Assembly (NCBI GenBank): GCA_027036735.1
Contig: JALWDU010000107.1
Location: forward strand, 1,037-65,036
Length of the DNA: 64,000 nucleotides
Direction: 5' to 3'
Source of the DNA: Aquificales bacterium
GTDB taxonomy: Bacteria; Aquificota; Aquificia; Aquificales; QOAS01
Part shown: in pieces, positions 1,653 to 53,171 of the stretch
Position numbering within the stretch: the stretch's first letter is position 1
Layout of the letters: every line of letters begins with the position of its first letter
Made by a program: the position numbers and the translations under genes
Notes under the pieces: generated by a model
Seen by the model: only the letters and a program-made list of their open reading frames with translations
Told to the model about the DNA's origin: nothing
Databases searched by the model: none

Positions 1653-3728
1653 ATGAACTTTTTGCTGGAGATAGGAACGGAAGAGCTTCCCGCCGCCTCC
1701 ATTTTGCCGGCTCTCGAATACTTGAAAAATTCCATAAAGGGGTTTCTGGAGGAGAGGGAAATCCCGTTCGGGGAAATAGAGGTTTTCGGAACCCCCCGCA
1801 GGTTGGTGGTTCATATAAAAAACCTCTCGGAGGAGGAACCCACAAAGAGGGAACTCGTTTGGGGACCCCCGAAAAATGTAGCCTTCGGTAGTGAGGGAAA
1901 ACCTACCAAAGCCCTCGAAGGGTTTTTGAAAAAAAATAACGCCTCGCCCGAAGAGGTAAAAATTCTCCCCAAAGGTAAGGGGGAGTATGTGGCTATAGAG
2001 CGCCTCGTCGGGGGCAGGAAGACCGAAGAACTGCTGGCGGAGAAAATTCCCGAAATACTCGACAACGTTCCCTTTCCCAAATACATGCGTTGGGATAGCT
2101 CGGGTAAGCTCTTTTTGAGACCGGTGCGCTGGATTTTGGCGCTCGCCAACGACAGGGTTGTTCCCTTCAGGTGGGGTGGTATAGAGAGCTCAAACACCAC
2201 CTACGGGCATAGGTTTGTAAATAACGGGGGAAACTTCAGGGGCAAACCCCTCCAAGTTAAGGATACGGTCGATTACTTCAAACTCCTAAGGGAGCATTAC
2301 GTAATTCTCGACCACCGCGAGAGGAGGGAACTTATCGAGAAAACCCTTTCGGAGTATGAGGGCGAATTCGGTGCAAAAGTCCCCCTAAGGGAGGATTTGG
2401 TGGAGGAAAACACCTTTTTGGTCGAATACGTTCACCCAATCCTCGGAGGGTTTGACGAAAAATATCTGGAACTCCCGCCGTTGGTTATCATTACGGTTGC
2501 GGCGCACCACCAGAGGTTTTTCTGTTTCCAAAAACCCACCGGTGAGGTGGTTAACAAATTCCTCGCCATATCCAACAACGTGCCGAAAAACGACAACGTC
2601 GTCCGCGAGGGTTTTGAGAAGGTTTTAAAAGCCCGCCTCGAGGATGCCCTATTCTTCTACAGGGAAGACCTAAAGAGGAGGCTCGAAGACCTCGTTCCCA
2701 AACTTAGGGGAATTCTCCAACACCCCAAATTGGGAACCCTTTACGACAAAACCCTTAGGTTGGTCGATATATCGGTGGAGCTCGCCTCTTGGCTCTATCC
2801 CGAGAAGGTTAAAAAAGCCGAGAGGGCGGCATATCTGTCCAAAGCCGACCTGCTAACCGAAATGGTTAAAGAGCTCGACGAACTTCAAGGTTATATGGGC
2901 TATATCTACGCCAAAGCCCAAGGGGAGGACGAGGAGGTCGCCAAAGCCCTCTGGGAGCAGTACAAACCCAAAGGAGCCGACGACGAGGTTCCCCAAACCG
3001 ATGTGGGAACCGTTCTATCGATAACCGATAAGGTTCACGACTTGGTGGGCTACTTCGGTATAGGGGAAAAACCCCGCTCCACCGCCGACCCCTACGGACT
3101 GCGCCGCGCCGCCCTCGGAATTATCCGCATAGTTGACAAAAAACGGTTAAACATCGACCTCGAAAGGTTGATAGAAATTACCTACGACCGCTTTGAGGAA
3201 TTGGAACTCTCCAAAGGAAAACTTCTAAGGGAGTTAGACGAATTCCTTAAGGGGAGGTTGCTCAACTACCTTGCCCCCACCTACGGGAGGGAATTGGTTT
3301 CGGCGGTTCTCGAGACCAAGAGCGGTTTCGACATTCTGGAGGTTATCGAAACCGTCGAAAAACTCCACTCCTTGCTCGAAAGCGAACTCCTCGCCGAAAT
3401 TAGAGAGGCTTACCGCCGCGTTCGCAAGATTATCGCCAAGGTGAAGGAGGAATACGGCTTAAATCCCGACCTCCTAAAACTCCCCGAGGAGGAGGAGCTT
3501 TATAAGGCACTCCTCGAAGTGGAGGAGATTTTCGAAAACCTACCCTTGGAGGAAAAACTCCAAAGACTTCACTCCCTCAAAGGGGTTATAGACAAATTCT
3601 TCGACAACGTTATGGTCATGGCTAAGGAGGAGGATATAAGGAAAAACCGCATAGCGCTCCTCCAACGGCTCAAAAAACTCTTCGAGAGGGTTGCAAACTT
3701 CGAAAAAGTCCCCGTAAAGGGAGAATGA
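1653..3728 (+). CDS. glyS: Glycine--tRNA ligase beta subunit
   Basis: 691-aa ORF. The N-terminus MNFLLEIGTEELPA and the overall length and sequence are typical of the GlyS beta chain. Confidence 0.9.
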   Translation: MNFLLEIGTEELPAASILPALEYLKNSIKGFLEEREIPFGEIEVFGTPRRLVVHIKNLSEEEPTKRELVWGPPKNVAFGSEGKPTKALEGFLKKNNASPEEVKILPKGKGEYVAIERLVGGRKTEELLAEKIPEILDNVPFPKYMRWDSSGKLFLRPVRWILALANDRVVPFRWGGIESSNTTYGHRFVNNGGNFRGKPLQVKDTVDYFKLLREHYVILDHRERRELIEKTLSEYEGEFGAKVPLREDLVEENTFLVEYVHPILGGFDEKYLELPPLVIITVAAHHQRFFCFQKPTGEVVNKFLAISNNVPKNDNVVREGFEKVLKARLEDALFFYREDLKRRLEDLVPKLRGILQHPKLGTLYDKTLRLVDISVELASWLYPEKVKKAERAAYLSKADLLTEMVKELDELQGYMGYIYAKAQGEDEEVAKALWEQYKPKGADDEVPQTDVGTVLSITDKVHDLVGYFGIGEKPRSTADPYGLRRAALGIIRIVDKKRLNIDLERLIEITYDRFEELELSKGKLLRELDEFLKGRLLNYLAPTYGRELVSAVLETKSGFDILEVIETVEKLHSLLESELLAEIREAYRRVRKIIAKVKEEYGLNPDLLKLPEEEELYKALLEVEEIFENLPLEEKLQRLHSLKGVIDKFFDNVMVMAKEEDIRKNRIALLQRLKKLFERVANFEKVPVKGE

Positions 3729-3976: not shown

Positions 3977-4909
3977 CTACCCCAACCGGTGAAAGTAAAG
4001 CTCCCCTATGGAGTCCAAGCTAAACTTTATAACCATCAGGCGGTCTAAGCCCAAAGAGACACCCGCGTATAGGGGCGGTAATTTTTTGTGGATTTCAACA
4101 AATTCCCTATCGAGGGGGAGGTTTAATTCCTCCGCCACCTTTTGGAGGCGTCTTTCGACCTCCGAGGGGTCGTTTATCTCGGTGTAACCGTTAGCCAGTT
4201 CTACGCCGAACATGTATAGCTCGAAGCGTTCGCACCAGCCGTTTTGACATCTCGCCAACGCGCCGAAGCGTTCGGGAAAGCCGTAAACGAAGGTGGGGCG
4301 CTCCCAACCGAGGTATTTTTCCAACTCCACATAGGTGTGGAAAAAGAGGGTCTCGGCGTCCTCGTCCGGTTCGAAGTGGATACCCCTCTCCTCCAATTGG
4401 CGCTTGAATGCCTCCCCATCCCTTAGGAGGAGTTCCAAATCCAATCCCAAATAGGTCTTGTAGGCTTCTTTTAGGGAGACCTTTAGGGGGTCGTTTTTTA
4501 TCTCCCTCCCCCTGTAGGTTATCCGCCCGCCAAAGAGCTCCTTTAGGAGGAGGGAGATTTCCTCCATCAAAAAGCGGTAATCGACCCCTATTTTGTAGTA
4601 TTCGAGCATGAGGAATTCAAAGTCGTGAAGCCGCCCCCCCTCGCGGTTTCTAAAGACGTGGCATATCTGAAAGATGTCCCTCCGGTAGCGGGCGAGGAGC
4701 TTTTTCATGGCGTATTCGGGAGAGGTGTGGAGGTAAAAAGCCCGCCTTCGGCGGGAAATATCCTCCACCTCGCAGGGTATGGGAAAGACATTCTCGTCCA
4801 AATTGGGGTAGGGGAGGAGGTGGGGGGTAACCACTTCGGTGTATCCCCTCTTTTTGAAAAATCCCCTAAGGGTGTCGAGGAATTTTTCGACCTCCAGAAG
4901 TTGGTTCAT
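3977..4909 (-). CDS. epmA: Elongation factor P--(R)-beta-lysine ligase (truncated class II LysRS paralog, PoxA/GenX)
   Basis: 310 aa. Class II aaRS catalytic core without an anticodon domain (HTSPEYAMK, FRNREGGRLHDFEFLMLEYY, GVSLGLDRL). Confidence 0.8.
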   Translation of the reverse strand: MNQLLEVEKFLDTLRGFFKKRGYTEVVTPHLLPYPNLDENVFPIPCEVEDISRRRRAFYLHTSPEYAMKKLLARYRRDIFQICHVFRNREGGRLHDFEFLMLEYYKIGVDYRFLMEEISLLLKELFGGRITYRGREIKNDPLKVSLKEAYKTYLGLDLELLLRDGEAFKRQLEERGIHFEPDEDAETLFFHTYVELEKYLGWERPTFVYGFPERFGALARCQNGWCERFELYMFGVELANGYTEINDPSEVERRLQKVAEELNLPLDREFVEIHKKLPPLYAGVSLGLDRLMVIKFSLDSIGELYFHRLG

Positions 4910-4920
4910 AGAAAAAAATA

Positions 4921-4964
4921 GTCGTTCGGAAACCCCCTATCTGTGATAGAGGGAGGCGAACGAC
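4921..4964 (+). repeat. Left-end imperfect palindrome of TnpB element 1
   Basis: GTCGTTCG (4921-4928) pairs with CGAACGAC (4957-4964). The inner stem CCCCCTATC / GATAGAGGG has a TGT loop and one mismatch. Subterminal imperfect hairpins are the hallmark of IS200/IS605 ends. Confidence 0.6.
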
Positions 4965-4976
4965 CACCGTAAAGTG

Positions 4977-5156
4977 TTATTTTCTCTTCCCTTCCTTGTG
5001 TTTAAGTTTCAACTCTCCGCTTAAAGCCTTTTCCATACACTCCATTACAAATTGGTGGAAACTTTTGTAATCGTTTTCAATCAGCCATTTCCTAAACTCC
5101 TTCCAAAGATGTTTTTCTATCCTTAGCGATGTTCTTACATATTCTTTTTTCTGCAT
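4977..5156 (-). CDS. Ribbon-helix-helix (CopG/Arc-like) DNA-binding protein, 59 aa, inside TnpB element 1
   Basis: Not in the ORF track (59 aa). Own translation: MQKKEYVRTSLRIEKHLWKEFRKWLIENDYKSFHQFVMECMEKALSGELKLKHKEGKRK. An N-terminal beta-strand (VRTSLRI) is followed by two helices, the RHH pattern. It is divergent from tnpB with a 39-bp spacer. Confidence 0.6.
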   Translation of the reverse strand: MQKKEYVRTSLRIEKHLWKEFRKWLIENDYKSFHQFVMECMEKALSGELKLKHKEGKRK

Positions 5157-5195
5157 AAAAGCATAATTATGTTATAATTTTTACTTAGGTAGGTA
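5157..5195. promoter_or_regulatory. Divergent control region between the RHH gene and tnpB-1
   Basis: 39-bp AT-rich spacer GCATAATTATGTTATAATTTTTACTTAGGTAGGTA. It has ATAATT boxes at 5163-5168 and 5174-5179 (11-bp spacing), TATAAT at 5173-5178 and an AGGT RBS-like site before the ATG at 5196. Confidence 0.4.
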
Positions 5196-6623
5196 ATGCT
5201 AAAACGGACGTTAAAAGTGAGGCTATACCCAACGGGGAAACAAAAACAGATACTTAGAGAAATTCAAATTAGATGTGCTAAACTTTGGAACAGGGCTAAC
5301 TACCTAATCCGTCAAGAATACTTTAAAAACGGGAAAATTCTTTCTTACAATCAAGTCTATAATTTCGTTAAAAACTCTCCTGAATACAAAGCATTACCTA
5401 CCGATATTTCCCAAGCAATTTTAAAGAAGTTATCCGAAAGTTGGAAATCTTTTAAAGAACTTAAGAAACTCAAAGAAAAAGGTAAACTTCCAGAACATAT
5501 TAAAAAAGTTTCTCCACCTAAATATTTCAAAAACAGAAAACTTAATCAAACTTTGCCTATGTCTATTATCCCTATCCTTGCTCCGAGAAGTTATAGTTTA
5601 GGAGATTTCTCTTTTTCTTTTACTGTTCCTAAAGATTTCAAAGAAAATTATGGTATTAAGAAACGCTTGGAGATTTTAGCAACTTACCGAATTCCTTACA
5701 AAAATTATAAACTCAAAAAAGCAGAAATTCTAAACAAAAACGGAAAGTGGTATGTCCATATTTCGGTAGAAATACCTAAAAAGGAATTAAAAGAAACTAA
5801 AAAAGTTAACTACGCAAGTATAGATTTAGGAATAAGAAATCTAATAACTTTAGCAATTTACGACGAGGAAAGAAAATTAATAAGAATTTATCAATTTAAA
5901 TCCAAAGAACTACTCAAAGAATGGAAATATTGGAATAGAAAAATAGCTAAATATCAATCAAAATTAGCTAAAAGTGGATATAAGGGAAGTTCTTTGAAAC
6001 TTAGAAAATACTACGAAAATAGAAACAAACGAATAAAAGTAGCAATTCAACAGATAATTAACAAAAACAAAATAATCCAAATTTTGGATAGATATGGAGT
6101 TAAGGAAATATTTATCGGTGATTTAACAGGTATAAGAAACGGAAAGGATTACGGAAAGGAGTTAAACAAACTTTTGCATAATTTCTGGATAAGAAAACAA
6201 TTTTTAAATATTTTGAAATACAAGTTAGAAGAAGTGGGAATAGGTTTAACCCCTATTCCCGAAGCCTATACTTCTAAAACCTGTTTTAATTGCAGTTTAG
6301 AAGTTAAAAGACCAAAGCAACACTTCGTAATTTGCTCCAATTGTGGGAAACTCCATTCTGATACAAATGGAGCAATAAATATCTTAAAAAGAGGATTAAA
6401 ACTGAAAAATTTGGAATGGAAGAAAATAGGGGAAGTTCACTTAATTTGGAAGTTTAAACAGACAAACAGATGGGTATTTAGGTATTTGAGAATATACAAA
6501 AAGGACAAAGATAAACCCCTTGTGAGGGGACAGGCTAACAACCCGCCAGTGGGGGTAGCTACTCCAAAAAGAAGTAGCTACTCTCCAAAGTCAAGCCCCG
6601 CATTTCTAATGCGCGGTGGTTGA
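5196..6623 (+). CDS. tnpB: TnpB (IS605 OrfB-family RNA-guided endonuclease homolog), 475 aa
   Basis: N-terminus LKVRLYPTGKQKQIL. RuvC-I Asp in ASIDLGIRNL. Zinc ribbon CFNC...CSNCG. RuvC-III in HSDTNGAINILK. The last ~60 codons overlap the structured GC-rich right end (presumed omega-RNA). Confidence 0.85.
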   Translation: MLKRTLKVRLYPTGKQKQILREIQIRCAKLWNRANYLIRQEYFKNGKILSYNQVYNFVKNSPEYKALPTDISQAILKKLSESWKSFKELKKLKEKGKLPEHIKKVSPPKYFKNRKLNQTLPMSIIPILAPRSYSLGDFSFSFTVPKDFKENYGIKKRLEILATYRIPYKNYKLKKAEILNKNGKWYVHISVEIPKKELKETKKVNYASIDLGIRNLITLAIYDEERKLIRIYQFKSKELLKEWKYWNRKIAKYQSKLAKSGYKGSSLKLRKYYENRNKRIKVAIQQIINKNKIIQILDRYGVKEIFIGDLTGIRNGKDYGKELNKLLHNFWIRKQFLNILKYKLEEVGIGLTPIPEAYTSKTCFNCSLEVKRPKQHFVICSNCGKLHSDTNGAINILKRGLKLKNLEWKKIGEVHLIWKFKQTNRWVFRYLRIYKKDKDKPLVRGQANNPPVGVATPKRSSYSPKSSPAFLMRGG

Positions 6624-6625
6624 CG
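6430..6625 (+). ncRNA. Putative omega-RNA (reRNA) scaffold of TnpB element 1; 5' limit uncertain
   Basis: Hairpins CCCCT-TGTG-AGGGG (6516-6529), GTAGCTACT/AGTAGCTAC (6555-6581) and CCCCGCAT/ATGCGCGG (6596-6616) at the 3' end of tnpB. Blocks are shared with the element 2 right end. The position fits the known TnpB omega-RNA architecture. Confidence 0.45.
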
Positions 6626-6703
6626 GCGAAAGTTAATAAACCTTAAAGGGTTTTCTGCGTTTTTTAATACCCCTTTGGGAGGTTTCGGCAAATTTCCCAT
6701 TCC

Positions 6704-51002: not shown

Positions 51003-51126
51003 CCTCCAAAGGGATATGAATAAAAAAGTCCGCCTCAAGGATGGGGAAATAGAAACCATTAAAGGGGTCATCCTCTCCTTCGACCCTGATGCGGAAATAA
51101 TTCTCTTCGGTAGCCGCACCGATTTG

Positions 51127-51295
51127 GGTGACATCCTCCCCTCATCGAAGATGAGGGGCTTCCCGCTTCATCGTGGAGAGTATCCCCACTCCACGGGCGT
51201 TACTTTCCCGCAGTCCACGGGTAGGGCAGACTTTAGGCGGTCTGCCAGCGCCTTATTCTTCTTCGCCAACTGCTTTAGTCCAATCTTTAATATGT
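51127..51295 (-). ncRNA. Putative omega-RNA scaffold of TnpB element 2; 5' limit uncertain
   Basis: GC-rich structured segment covering the last ~40 codons of tnpB-2 plus the right end. Hairpins GTGGAG..CTCCAC and CCCCTCATC/GATGAGGGG. Shares blocks with the element 1 right end. Confidence 0.45.
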
Positions 51296-52421
51296 TCCAA
51301 GCTCCATTTAAATCTCTGTCAATTTCTAAACCGCATTTCGAGCATCTATAAGTCCTCTCGTTTAATTCAACTTTTTGCTTAAAACCACATCTACAACAAG
51401 TTTTCGTTGTTGCTTCATATTTCGGCACAAATTCTACAGGGATAAGGGTCGCAAGGTATTTCAGCCTTGCAGTTATTCCCCCTATCCCCGTGTTTTGAAT
51501 TTCTTTCCCAAACAATCCTTTGTGCCAACCTTTTATGTCATCTCTTTGAACCGCTATAAACGGAAACTTCTTTAAGTAGCTTATTACCTTGTTTTGAATG
51601 TCTTTTCTTTTGTTCTTAATATATTCCCATTCCTTTTGTATTAACTTTTTAACCTTTTGATAGTTTTTGCTCCCTTTCCTCTTTCTTGCCAAAATCTTTT
51701 GCAACCTTTTAAGCCTCTTCGTTTCGGGAATATACCACTTAAACCTCTCTCCCGTTGTTAAGGTTAGCTGGTATTTAATACCTAAATCTATACCTACTGG
51801 AATTGAGGTCTGCTTTTGCTTAATTTCCCTTAAAACTTCCTCTTTCCAAAGATAGCAAACTACATATAGATAAAAGCCCGAAGGCTTTTTAACCAGAAAA
51901 GCGTTTGCAATCTCTGAATTTTTAGGTATCTGGTGCAATCCCAAAACTCTAAACCACTTTTTAATGCCTTGAACTTTAACTCTGTTTCTTTTAAAGTCTA
52001 TTTTGTAGGTGATTCCGAACTGCTTTAGGGGAATGCTTTTAAAATCGGATTTAAATTGTAGTTTTCCTACCTTATGGCCTTGTCCCTTTAGTTTTTTCAA
52101 AGTTTTAAGGCTATTTTTAATCCTTTCAATAATGTCTTGTTTGACTTGAGAGCCTAAGAGTTTTAGCTCTCTTTTCTCAAAACCATTAAGAGTTTTAATT
52201 TCTACCACTTTAAGTTTTTCGGATAGTTTGTTTAATCGGCTGTCAATATCCGCGATGAGGTAGTTATAGAACCATTTAGCCTCTAAGAAAAGTCTTTCTA
52301 AGGTTTTTATGTCGGATTTAGAAAGGTTTTGGAGTTTTAGCTGAAAGACTTTGGGAGTTTGGAGTTTTCTTTTTTCTTTAGTTAGTTTAAGAGATTGTTT
52401 GATTTTATCGGCTTTAGTCAT
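51168..52421 (-). CDS. tnpB: TnpB (IS605 OrfB-family RNA-guided endonuclease homolog), 417 aa
   Basis: RuvC-I VGIDLGIKYQ, zinc ribbon CCRCG...CSKCG and RuvC-III DRDLNGAWNILK. Confidence 0.85.
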   Translation of the reverse strand: MTKADKIKQSLKLTKEKRKLQTPKVFQLKLQNLSKSDIKTLERLFLEAKWFYNYLIADIDSRLNKLSEKLKVVEIKTLNGFEKRELKLLGSQVKQDIIERIKNSLKTLKKLKGQGHKVGKLQFKSDFKSIPLKQFGITYKIDFKRNRVKVQGIKKWFRVLGLHQIPKNSEIANAFLVKKPSGFYLYVVCYLWKEEVLREIKQKQTSIPVGIDLGIKYQLTLTTGERFKWYIPETKRLKRLQKILARKRKGSKNYQKVKKLIQKEWEYIKNKRKDIQNKVISYLKKFPFIAVQRDDIKGWHKGLFGKEIQNTGIGGITARLKYLATLIPVEFVPKYEATTKTCCRCGFKQKVELNERTYRCSKCGLEIDRDLNGAWNILKIGLKQLAKKNKALADRLKSALPVDCGKVTPVEWGYSPR

Positions 52422-52694
52422 CGCTCCAAACGCCCTTAGATAGGGATTTTAAAACCTATCGGACGCCATTCATCCCTCCATCACAGAGGAGGAGCTTTCT
52501 AACGTGGAGTTTTGTAAAAAGGGAGGTGACATAGACCTCCTCGTGGTTTCTAAAAAAATAGGTTACCGCGAGAGGAGAAGGATAAGGGTCGAACTCCTAA
52601 AGCGGTTGGGCGACAGAAAAATAGACCTTTTGGTGGTTGGAGACCCCAAAGAAACCGTTTTTAGAAAATTAGCCTACAAATACGGGGTGAGGCT

Positions 52695-53171
52695 ATGACC
52701 TTTGAGGAGCGTCTTAGCCTCTTTTGCGAAAATTTGCGTTTATACCTCAAGAGTGTGGAGTGGTTAAAGGTTTCCATCGAAAGGTGCAAAAGTTTAGACC
52801 CCAAAGCGGAATGGAGTTTGGAAGACTACGAGAGGATAGAAACCTTGTTTTCCCGTTTTAGTAGGGCTGTTGATATTCTCCTTAATAAGGTTTTACGTTC
52901 GCTCGATATCCTCGAATTGGAGGAACCCCTGAGAAAACTGGATGTCGTTAATCGAGCCGAAAAGAGGGGTATAGTGGAGGATTACAACATCCTAATAGAG
53001 CTTAAGGATTTAAGGAACGAACTCGCCCGCGAATATATAGAGGAGGCTTTAAAGAACCGTTTGGAAGAGGTTATGGAAAAGAGTCTCCTCCTCTTGGAGA
53101 TAACCAAAAATTTAAAGGAATACGCCCAAAGGATGGAGTATTTGGAGGGTTGTCCCGAAATGGGGAATTGA
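52695..53171 (+). CDS. HEPN-like partner of the MNT gene (toxin-type component) with non-canonical RNxxxR motif
   Basis: ATGA start/stop overlap with the MNT C-fragment. All-helical 158-aa protein. LRNELAREY (53013-53036) sits where HEPN/DUF86 proteins carry RNxxxHxY. Confidence 0.55.
   Translation: MTFEERLSLFCENLRLYLKSVEWLKVSIERCKSLDPKAEWSLEDYERIETLFSRFSRAVDILLNKVLRSLDILELEEPLRKLDVVNRAEKRGIVEDYNILIELKDLRNELAREYIEEALKNRLEEVMEKSLLLLEITKNLKEYAQRMEYLEGCPEMGN

Follow-up and report, generated by a model that had tools for sequence, protein, structure and literature searches.

Open reading frames (ORFs) for Arc-like ribbon-helix-helix (RHH) proteins inside TnpB elements, with hundreds of TnpB-associated homologs, were reported by Zedaveinyte et al. 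(10.1101/2023.11.20.567912; Science 2024). A later preprint by Moon, Zedaveinyte, Wiegand & Sternberg (10.64898/2026.09.24.754181, bioRxiv 28 Sep 2026) presents many elements in which arc, along with tnpA, is encoded on the strand opposite to tnpB. In that work Arc was located on the intergenic promoter by chromatin immunoprecipitation sequencing and repressed the tnpB promoter in reporter assays, elements with arc and tnpB only are included, and arc genes are often absent from annotations. Seeds of the published transposon-associated Arc clade are WP_003367503.1 and WP_094548610.1. A different pair, an archaeal RHH/MazE protein with TnpB, was read as a toxin-antitoxin system by Altae-Tran et al. 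2023 (PMC10691335). Here we analyze a stretch of 64,000 nucleotides from an Aquificales bacterium (assembly GCA_027036735.1, contig JALWDU010000107.1, positions 1,037 to 65,036), which is called the window and to which all coordinates refer unless a related locus is named. Positions 4910-6624 of the window are an AT-rich element of the IS200/IS605 family (IS1341-type) without TnpA, consisting in this order of a left-end (LE) hairpin, a 59-aa gene on the minus strand (4977-5156), a 39-bp spacer, tnpB (5196-6623) and, at the right end, a structured region for the omega-RNA. With a probability of roughly 0.7 we read it as a non-autonomous element that carries its own Arc-like RHH repressor, acting on tnpB/omega-RNA and on itself. 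The element is a further example of the module noted in 2023-24 and tested in the 2026 preprint, in a thermophile lineage in which it is unannotated. The preliminary description of this DNA, made from the letters alone, knew of no described TnpB-RHH module; such modules are on record in the two Arc studies, and the archaeal pair in the third publication.

The likeness to the Arc genes of IS605 elements comprises a small protein of ~50-60 aa, here a predicted RHH protein, that is often unannotated and encoded within the insertion sequence (IS) opposite to tnpB, together with a short spacer with dyads and, here as candidates, divergent promoter elements, for which tnpB repression and autoregulation are proposed. 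The locus differs from the Arc elements in its host (the tested cases are from Clostridia, this one is from Aquificota of hot environments), in the strand predicted to read the DNA (RTSLRI here, Asn5/Asn7/Thr9 in the Arc of P. xylanilyticum), in a TnpB with a rearranged RuvC-II site and in an RHH-plus-operator block that was apparently exchanged. With IS1341-type elements it shares a single tnpB, the lack of tnpA, subterminal hairpin ends without inverted repeats, insertion on the 3' side of a short, conserved motif without a recognisable duplication of the target, and a putative omega-RNA at the 3' end whose guide would come from the flank. Unlike these, it has a second gene between LE and tnpB, that of the putative RHH regulator (below, the RHH gene).

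The limits of the element were derived from related loci (numbered with the prefix L), which were gathered with the small protein and TnpB as queries and whose ends were then aligned. On the left, homology among the copies starts at TTCAT|AGAAAAA, with TTCAT at 4905-4909 of the window and the element from 4910 onwards, and the flanks to the left of TTCAT are unrelated between aligned copies. Left junctions were aligned for 11 copies, and 8 of these have TTCAT(AG) directly 5' of the element (window, L001, L002, L004, L007, L009, L025, L028). From these alignments TTCAT is probably both the insertion target and the target-adjacent motif (TAM), and we infer where target and element divide. On the right, all copies stop at ...GGTGGTTGAC (window 6624) and diverge completely beyond; among five copies the boundary lies exactly after GTTGAC. 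The preliminary description had set the element at 4919-6625, and a TnpB element is indeed located there, with its limits now moved to 4910-6624. The boundaries are sharp, both ends are subterminal hairpins without terminal inverted repeats, and no direct repeat flanks the element. The AT-rich block seen earlier was also recovered, as the GC content drops from ~0.50 to values of 0.25-0.33 over positions ~4950-6500.

The imperfect hairpin of the left end (4921-4964), as already proposed, proved significant when folded as DNA, with z = -3.4 for the plus and -4.9 for the minus strand and 0 of 200 shuffles as good. It is kept in nine copies and shows compensatory changes in the outer stem (GTCGTTCG/CGAACGAC versus GTCGCTCG/GAGCGAC). 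On the minus strand the hairpin is followed by a T7 run, and hairpin and T7 run may serve as a terminator of RHH transcription too; a simple promoter/terminator scan did not call the hairpin a terminator. Only two ORFs fit inside the element, and neither a Y1 (HUH) nor a serine transposase is encoded in it. No Y1 transposase was detected in the window or in the related loci by tblastn with the TnpA proteins of IS608 and ISDra2 (best E 0.28), and Y1_Tnp did not occur among the Pfam-annotated neighbours of the related loci. The element is therefore assigned to the tnpB-only (IS1341-type) members of the IS200/IS605 family, in line with the original observation that tnpA is missing. Copies were found in at least 14 distinct genomic contexts. 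The identical insertion on the epmA/rsgA side is present in a second metagenome assembly (L029 1-22), where the contig ends inside the right end of the element, a break that is usual in repeats. When the 77-aa neighbour was looked up by its exact protein sequence, nothing but this same insertion came back, and no unoccupied site was found, either with or without the small gene.

The 59-aa ORF on the minus strand is present with the sequence first given for it, and it is a genuine conserved coding gene by the pattern of its sequence evolution. We found 32 close homologs (66-91% identical, 55-76 aa) and a wider family of 104 proteins. The ratio of nonsynonymous to synonymous substitution rates (dN/dS) of the core is 0.02-0.11 across eight copies, with synonymous sites near saturation. 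None of the close homologs (P0001-P0032) has an accession or a name in the NCBI-derived sources, and the gene is apparently unannotated. The predicted layout of the protein is an extended strand around TSLRI, a helix at residues 15-27, a turn (DYKS), a second helix at 33-46 and a basic tail. A G-x-x-S turn is typical of RHH proteins; most relatives have it (NGYRS/KGYKS), and DYKS is the form of the window type. Pfam RHH_4 matched the window protein marginally (E = 0.039, single sequence) and 7 of 23 family members at E >= 0.023, with weak ParG and BrnA matches beside it. When the family profile was compared with PDB sequences, the RHH domain of NikR came first (E = 0.033, whole domain), followed by Arc and SvtR (E = 0.4), and the three alignments were in register. 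Alignments by hhalign to P22 Arc and to the N-domain of NikR were in register as well (P ~0.002, with reported probabilities of 13-15%). AF2 with a diverse alignment predicted an extended N-terminal segment and the two helices at 15-27 and 33-46 separated by a turn (mean confidence, pLDDT, 86.5). The best Foldseek matches of this model were NikR and ParD in the PDB (root-mean-square deviation ~2 Å over 43-44 residues; non-significant, E > 1) and a phage repressor, NikA and an archaeal-virus regulator in BFVD, all non-significant. RHH is thus the best-supported fold for the small protein and is likely, not proven. The earlier assignment to this fold stood in so far as all profile and structure matches lie in one register, and its support by them is marginal. 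Searches with tblastn against plasmid and phage collections yielded no relative of the window protein.

The preliminary description had placed the small gene inside the element and had called for a survey of gene neighbourhoods. Such a survey revealed strong co-occurrence: in 14 of 18 distinct loci, the window included, an RHH-family gene and a tnpB of this clade are divergent neighbours (window, L001, L002/8, L003, L004, L005, L006, L007, L016, L020/21, L022, L023/24, L025-27, L028). Wherever both genes are present, they point away from each other. Identity of tnpB among the linked loci ranges from 48% to 86%, and the flanking genes are all different: epmA/rsgA in the window and elsewhere ornithine decarboxylase/relB, ABC transporter/pqqD, a split SIR2 gene and plasmid-like or phage-like regions. 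Neither epmA nor rsgA of the window occurs at any of the related tnpB loci. The small gene is cargo of the element, as had been supposed, because it lies between the conserved LE hairpin and tnpB at many unrelated sites. As to the remaining loci, L009 is cut before the position of the small gene, and three distant relatives (L010-12, L013, L014/15; 35-45% identical) have no tnpB. D. thermolithotrophum L016 was at one time counted as a tnpB without RHH; this was withdrawn when tblastn detected an unannotated RHH ORF at 2784-2954(-).

Some of these loci, and others around tnpB of this clade, have further features. One distant relative, in Desulfurobacterium pacificum, lies between a DUF2283 gene, which follows a prokaryotic Argonaute (pAgo/Piwi) gene, and an AAA ATPase gene; a second, in a Phorcysia assembly, is flanked by tniQ and tniB in a Tn7-like element; and the third belongs to a locus with a sigma-70-like gene. 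L020 (818-4195) contains two adjoining TnpB elements, one of them with a divergent 106-aa ORF without Pfam match. An HTH_3 gene follows the RHH gene in L023 (4001-4500). In L017 (2623-4434), where RHH was not detected, a tnpB with 50% identity is preceded at a distance of 39 bp by an HTH_3 gene of the same orientation.

The spacer between the RHH gene and tnpB (5157-5195) contains a dyad, GCATAATTATGT, that overlaps both a candidate extended -10 element for tnpB and a candidate -10 element of the RHH mRNA. Its half-sites are GCATAA (5153-5158, over the RHH start codon), GCATAA (5161-5166) and TTATGT (5167-5172), and a palindrome, CATAATTATG, spans 5162-5171. The extended -10 for tnpB, TGTTATAAT (5170-5178), lies ~18 nt before the tnpB ATG and is followed by the Shine-Dalgarno sequence AGGTAGGT. 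On the minus strand CATAAT (5171-5166) stands 9 nt ahead of the RHH ATG without a Shine-Dalgarno sequence, an arrangement suggesting that the RHH mRNA is probably leaderless. Dyads in the corresponding position were found in other copies, namely TTGCATAAT-N6-ATTATGCTA (L006), TTGCATAATTA-aa-TAATTATGCTA (L003) and TTGTATAATTATACAA (L007). Copies with the strand (I/V/A)-R-T-S-L-R have dyads of the GCATAA..TTATGC type, and those with A-T-T-S-L-R have the GTATAA|TTATAC type (TTGTATAATTATACAA); a strand residue ahead of the invariant TSLR that, within one RHH type, tracks the operator variant is suggestive, the comparison being one of two related groups. A likeness between operator and right-end hairpin, both of which have GCAT..ATGC arms, was considered and set aside as coincidence, as L006 has an altered right-end stem and an unchanged operator.

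The product of the second gene is, as claimed before, a TnpB of 475 aa. It matched OrfB_IS605 (3.9e-19), Cas12f1-like_TNB (7.9e-16) and HTH_OrfB_IS605 in Pfam and guided_TnpB (2.4e-48) in NCBIfam. The RuvC-I residue is D210, the zinc ribbon is formed by C363/C366/C380/C383, and the RuvC-III residue is D389 (HSDTNGA). In an alignment with ISDra2 TnpB the position of the RuvC-II Glu is a Gly (G308, IGDL), and an alternative invariant Glu is available at E356 (PEAYTS). Among 26 relatives, down to 29% identity, D210, G308, E356, D389 and C363/C366/C380 are invariant and C383 is nearly so. The same replacement of the RuvC-II Glu by Gly together with an alternative conserved Glu defines a likeness, in motif pattern alone, to the RIIr-5 TnpB clade of Altae-Tran et al. 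2023, which is predicted to be active. TldR-type domesticated TnpB is nuclease-dead, and the locus does not resemble it, with D210, E356 and D389 invariant and many genomic contexts. A domesticated RNA-guided regulatory system, one of two roles proposed at the outset, is also disfavoured by the many contexts, the intact ends and the invariant, though rearranged, catalytic set.

The last ~200 nt of the element (about 6425-6624) overlap the C-terminal ~75 codons of tnpB. RNAalifold on five copies predicted 50 pairs in this region, 11 of them with compensatory changes, a conserved structure as expected for an omega-RNA scaffold. No Rfam family matched the omega-RNA region. A CRISPR-DR45 match inside tnpB (6379-6402, minus strand; 27.5 bits versus a gathering score of 37, E = 0.041) was taken as chance. 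In two copies hairpin-forming insertions of ~40 nt (e.g. ATAAGCCCCTGAAAGGGGCTAATTCCGTCCTTCGGACTTC) are located at differing places within the omega-RNA region, and insertions of this kind were also found in the left end of a third copy; they look like miniature mobile hairpin elements.

According to the reading that we prefer, RHH and tnpB would be transcribed back to back from the 39-bp spacer, and an RHH dimer, or a dimer of dimers, would bind the dyad GCATAA..TTATG(C/T). The bound dyad would cover the extended -10 of tnpB/omega-RNA, the -10 of the RHH gene and the RHH start codon, and binding would lead to self-repression and to a low level of the TnpB-omega-RNA nuclease. TnpB with the right-end omega-RNA would cut the vacant site, consisting of TTCAT and the flank, after excision of the element, which would then be restored by recombination. 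For this homing mechanism of TnpB the 2026 preprint cites Karvelis 2021 and Meers 2023. Movement would require a Y1 TnpA in trans that acts on the LE and right-end hairpins. The proposed repression of tnpB and of its own gene by the RHH protein rests on the analogy with the published Arc work and on the spacer dyad. A repressor of tnpB/omega-RNA was the other role offered by the preliminary description; it is the most likely one and the dyad fits it, with DNA binding and repression carried over by analogy.

Several points weigh against this reading. Taken singly, each line of evidence for the RHH fold has little statistical weight (the Pfam matches, at E 0.02-0.04, fall short of the gathering score; PDB 0.033; hhalign 13-15%; Foldseek E > 1). 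With hhalign no match to CopG was obtained (probability 0.2%). AF2 on a shallow alignment of 32 sequences yielded a two-helix hairpin, a long helix and a second one, without Foldseek match in the PDB; this model was superseded by that from the diverse alignment. The family has no significant Pfam match and is likened to the published Arc by predicted fold and gene arrangement and not by sequence. A scan with the sigma-70 consensus identified no full -35/-10 promoter in the spacer. With the RuvC-II Glu missing, a nuclease activity of TnpB would depend on the argument for rearranged sites made in PMC10691335. No TnpA was seen, so that current mobility of the element is unproven.

Comparison of closely related copies indicated that the RHH gene and its operator have a history of their own. 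The TnpB proteins of L025 and L028 are 77-82% identical to TnpB of the window, and those of L006 and L025 are 86% identical to each other. The RHH proteins of L025/L028 share 39-45% identity with RHH of the window type and 53-61% with RHH of distant elements. A sliding comparison of the window with L028 gave 92% identity in the LE, 42-65% at ~4965-5186 and 67-95% in tnpB (mostly at least 75%). The replaced spacers have another layout with -35 boxes of the TTGACA type. Judged from these identities, the block of RHH gene and operator appears to have been exchanged between otherwise near-identical elements. It is possible, if on balance doubtful, that RHH gene and operator constitute an exchangeable 'immunity' cassette. 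We did not find such an exchange described in the accessible parts of Zedaveinyte et al. or Moon et al., and measured against these it is the only aspect that goes beyond published work.

Three other explanations were weighed. RHH and TnpB could form a toxin-antitoxin-like pair in which RHH neutralises TnpB by protein contact, blocking guide or target binding, with autoregulation possible. RHH proteins are common as type II antitoxins, weak matches to the BrnA_antitoxin family of Pfam and to the antitoxin ParD in Foldseek were obtained, and an interaction of Arc with TnpB is listed as a possibility by Moon et al. (10.64898/2026.09.24.754181). The genes of toxin-antitoxin operons are co-transcribed, however, and those of the element are divergent; helix 2 is followed only by a short, variable Lys/Glu tail and not by a conserved toxin-binding extension. 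Near-identical TnpB proteins occur with RHH proteins that are only ~41% identical, which is a poor fit to a co-adapted interface. The proposal of Altae-Tran et al. for the archaeal clade (PMC10691335) also lends support to such a pair, and there too a small RHH protein is linked to a TnpB predicted to be active with a rearranged catalytic site. In the archaeal pairs, however, the small gene precedes tnpB in the same orientation, as in an operon (putative), the RuvC-III Asp is changed to His, the zinc finger is absent and the clades are described as non-mobile. The element of the window has divergent genes, differs from the archaeal RIIIr-4 clade in retaining the RuvC-III Asp and the zinc ribbon, is rearranged at RuvC-II and belongs to mobile elements. 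We consider a toxin-antitoxin-like pair unlikely.

The small ORF could also be a passenger or relic without a role, or not an RHH protein at all, and be linked to tnpB by common descent alone. The marginal evidence for the fold and the existence of distant relatives without TnpB (pAgo island, Tn7-like element and one other locus) would agree with this. Strong purifying selection acts on the ORF, however, its position and orientation are kept down to ~48% tnpB identity and through the replacement of the cassette, and all profile and structure matches, though weak, agree on fold and register; a passenger is improbable to us.

Least probable of all is a transposition accessory factor, similar to an excisionase or directionality factor, that would bind hairpins or ends of the element and so influence how a TnpA in trans excises or integrates it: the gene adjoins the LE hairpin, RHH relaxosome factors of the NikA/TraY type bind DNA ends, NikA is among the weak Foldseek matches and regulation of transposition is one possibility named by Zedaveinyte et al. 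(10.1101/2023.11.20.567912), but the conserved dyads are in the spacer and not at the ends, the LE of window and L028 is 92% identical while RHH is ~41% identical, so that the protein does not co-vary with the end, and the right-end hairpin of L006 is altered with operator and RHH unaltered.

The coordinates of the element and of related features are compiled in Table 1.

Table 1. Features of the tnpB element with the RHH gene and of related loci (window coordinates unless a locus is named).
Feature	Position	Strand	Basis or remark
TTCAT	4905..4909	+	candidate target site/TAM, directly 5' of LE; complement of the epmA start codon (ATGAA)
LE with 44-nt imperfect hairpin (4921-4964)	4910..4976	+	outer stem GTCGTTCG/CGAACGAC; apical stem-loop holds TCTGTGATAGAGGGA
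arc-like gene, 59-aa predicted RHH protein	4977..5156	-	homologs, dN/dS, profile matches, AF2
candidate operator and overlapping divergent promoters	5153..5178		read directly from sequence
tnpB, 475 aa	5196..6623	+	Pfam and NCBIfam matches; ISDra2 TnpB alignment; invariant columns in 26 clade members
putative omega-RNA (reRNA) scaffold and right end	6425..6624	+	5' limit approximate; terminal hairpin ~6596-6616; end ...GGTGGTTGAC (6624)
flank, would-be omega-RNA guide (GGCGAAAGTTAATAAACC)	6625..6642	+	with TTCAT gives the vacant-site target; inferred from the TnpB homing mechanism
14/15 copy of LE loop motif	52473..52487	-	upstream of second tnpB
short hairpin insertions	L005 ~1000-1260; L006 ~126-365; L025 ~2640-2760		
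distant RHH relatives without tnpB	L010 4001-4216; L013 4001-4183; L014 4001-4177		

The element sits directly 5' of the epmA start codon (window 3977-4976), and the native upstream region of epmA is lost. The gene now follows the RHH gene in the same orientation at a distance of 67 nt, with the LE hairpin and the T7 run in between, and no Shine-Dalgarno sequence is visible. Transcripts that start at the RHH promoter and read through may be what epmA expression depends on.

The window contains a second tnpB (51168-52421, minus strand), whose product is ~28% identical to the first TnpB and belongs to an unrelated clade; this element has no RHH gene. As observed earlier, the 15-mer TCTGTGATAGAGGGA in the left end of the first element (4940-4954) recurs with one mismatch upstream of the second tnpB, giving 2 matches versus 0.11 expected. 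The variant at the second element, TCTGTGATGGAGGGA, is the exact LE motif of the L028 element, and the motif at the second site does not lie in a significant hairpin (z ~ +0.7). A trans-acting TnpA common to both elements, as the non-random 15-mer might imply, is possible but unsupported. The second element splits an ORF for an MNT-type nucleotidyltransferase (window 51016-52698). Joined at the junction GATTTG|GAGTTT, the ORF scores 28.1 bits with NTP_transf_2, versus 22.3 at the 8-nt GGTGACAT repeat, and the second element probably spans ~51121-52504.

The findings extend the Arc layer of IS605 regulation beyond Firmicutes, to thermophilic Aquificota and to a TnpB with rearranged RuvC-II, at the strength with which the small protein is taken for an Arc-like repressor. 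Elements classified as 'tnpB-only' may hide a second gene that was missed by annotation. For developers of TnpB tools the element may offer a compact nuclease from a thermophile that comes with its own off-switch and with a candidate operator already defined. Should the exchange of the cassette be adaptive, TnpB elements in one host would not be silenced by one another's repressors, like heteroimmune phages. If the RHH gene and its operator do act as an immunity cassette, this would be an unrecognised layer of regulatory individuality for IS elements, based on an RHH family that is also common to Tn7-like and pAgo-linked loci of Aquificota.

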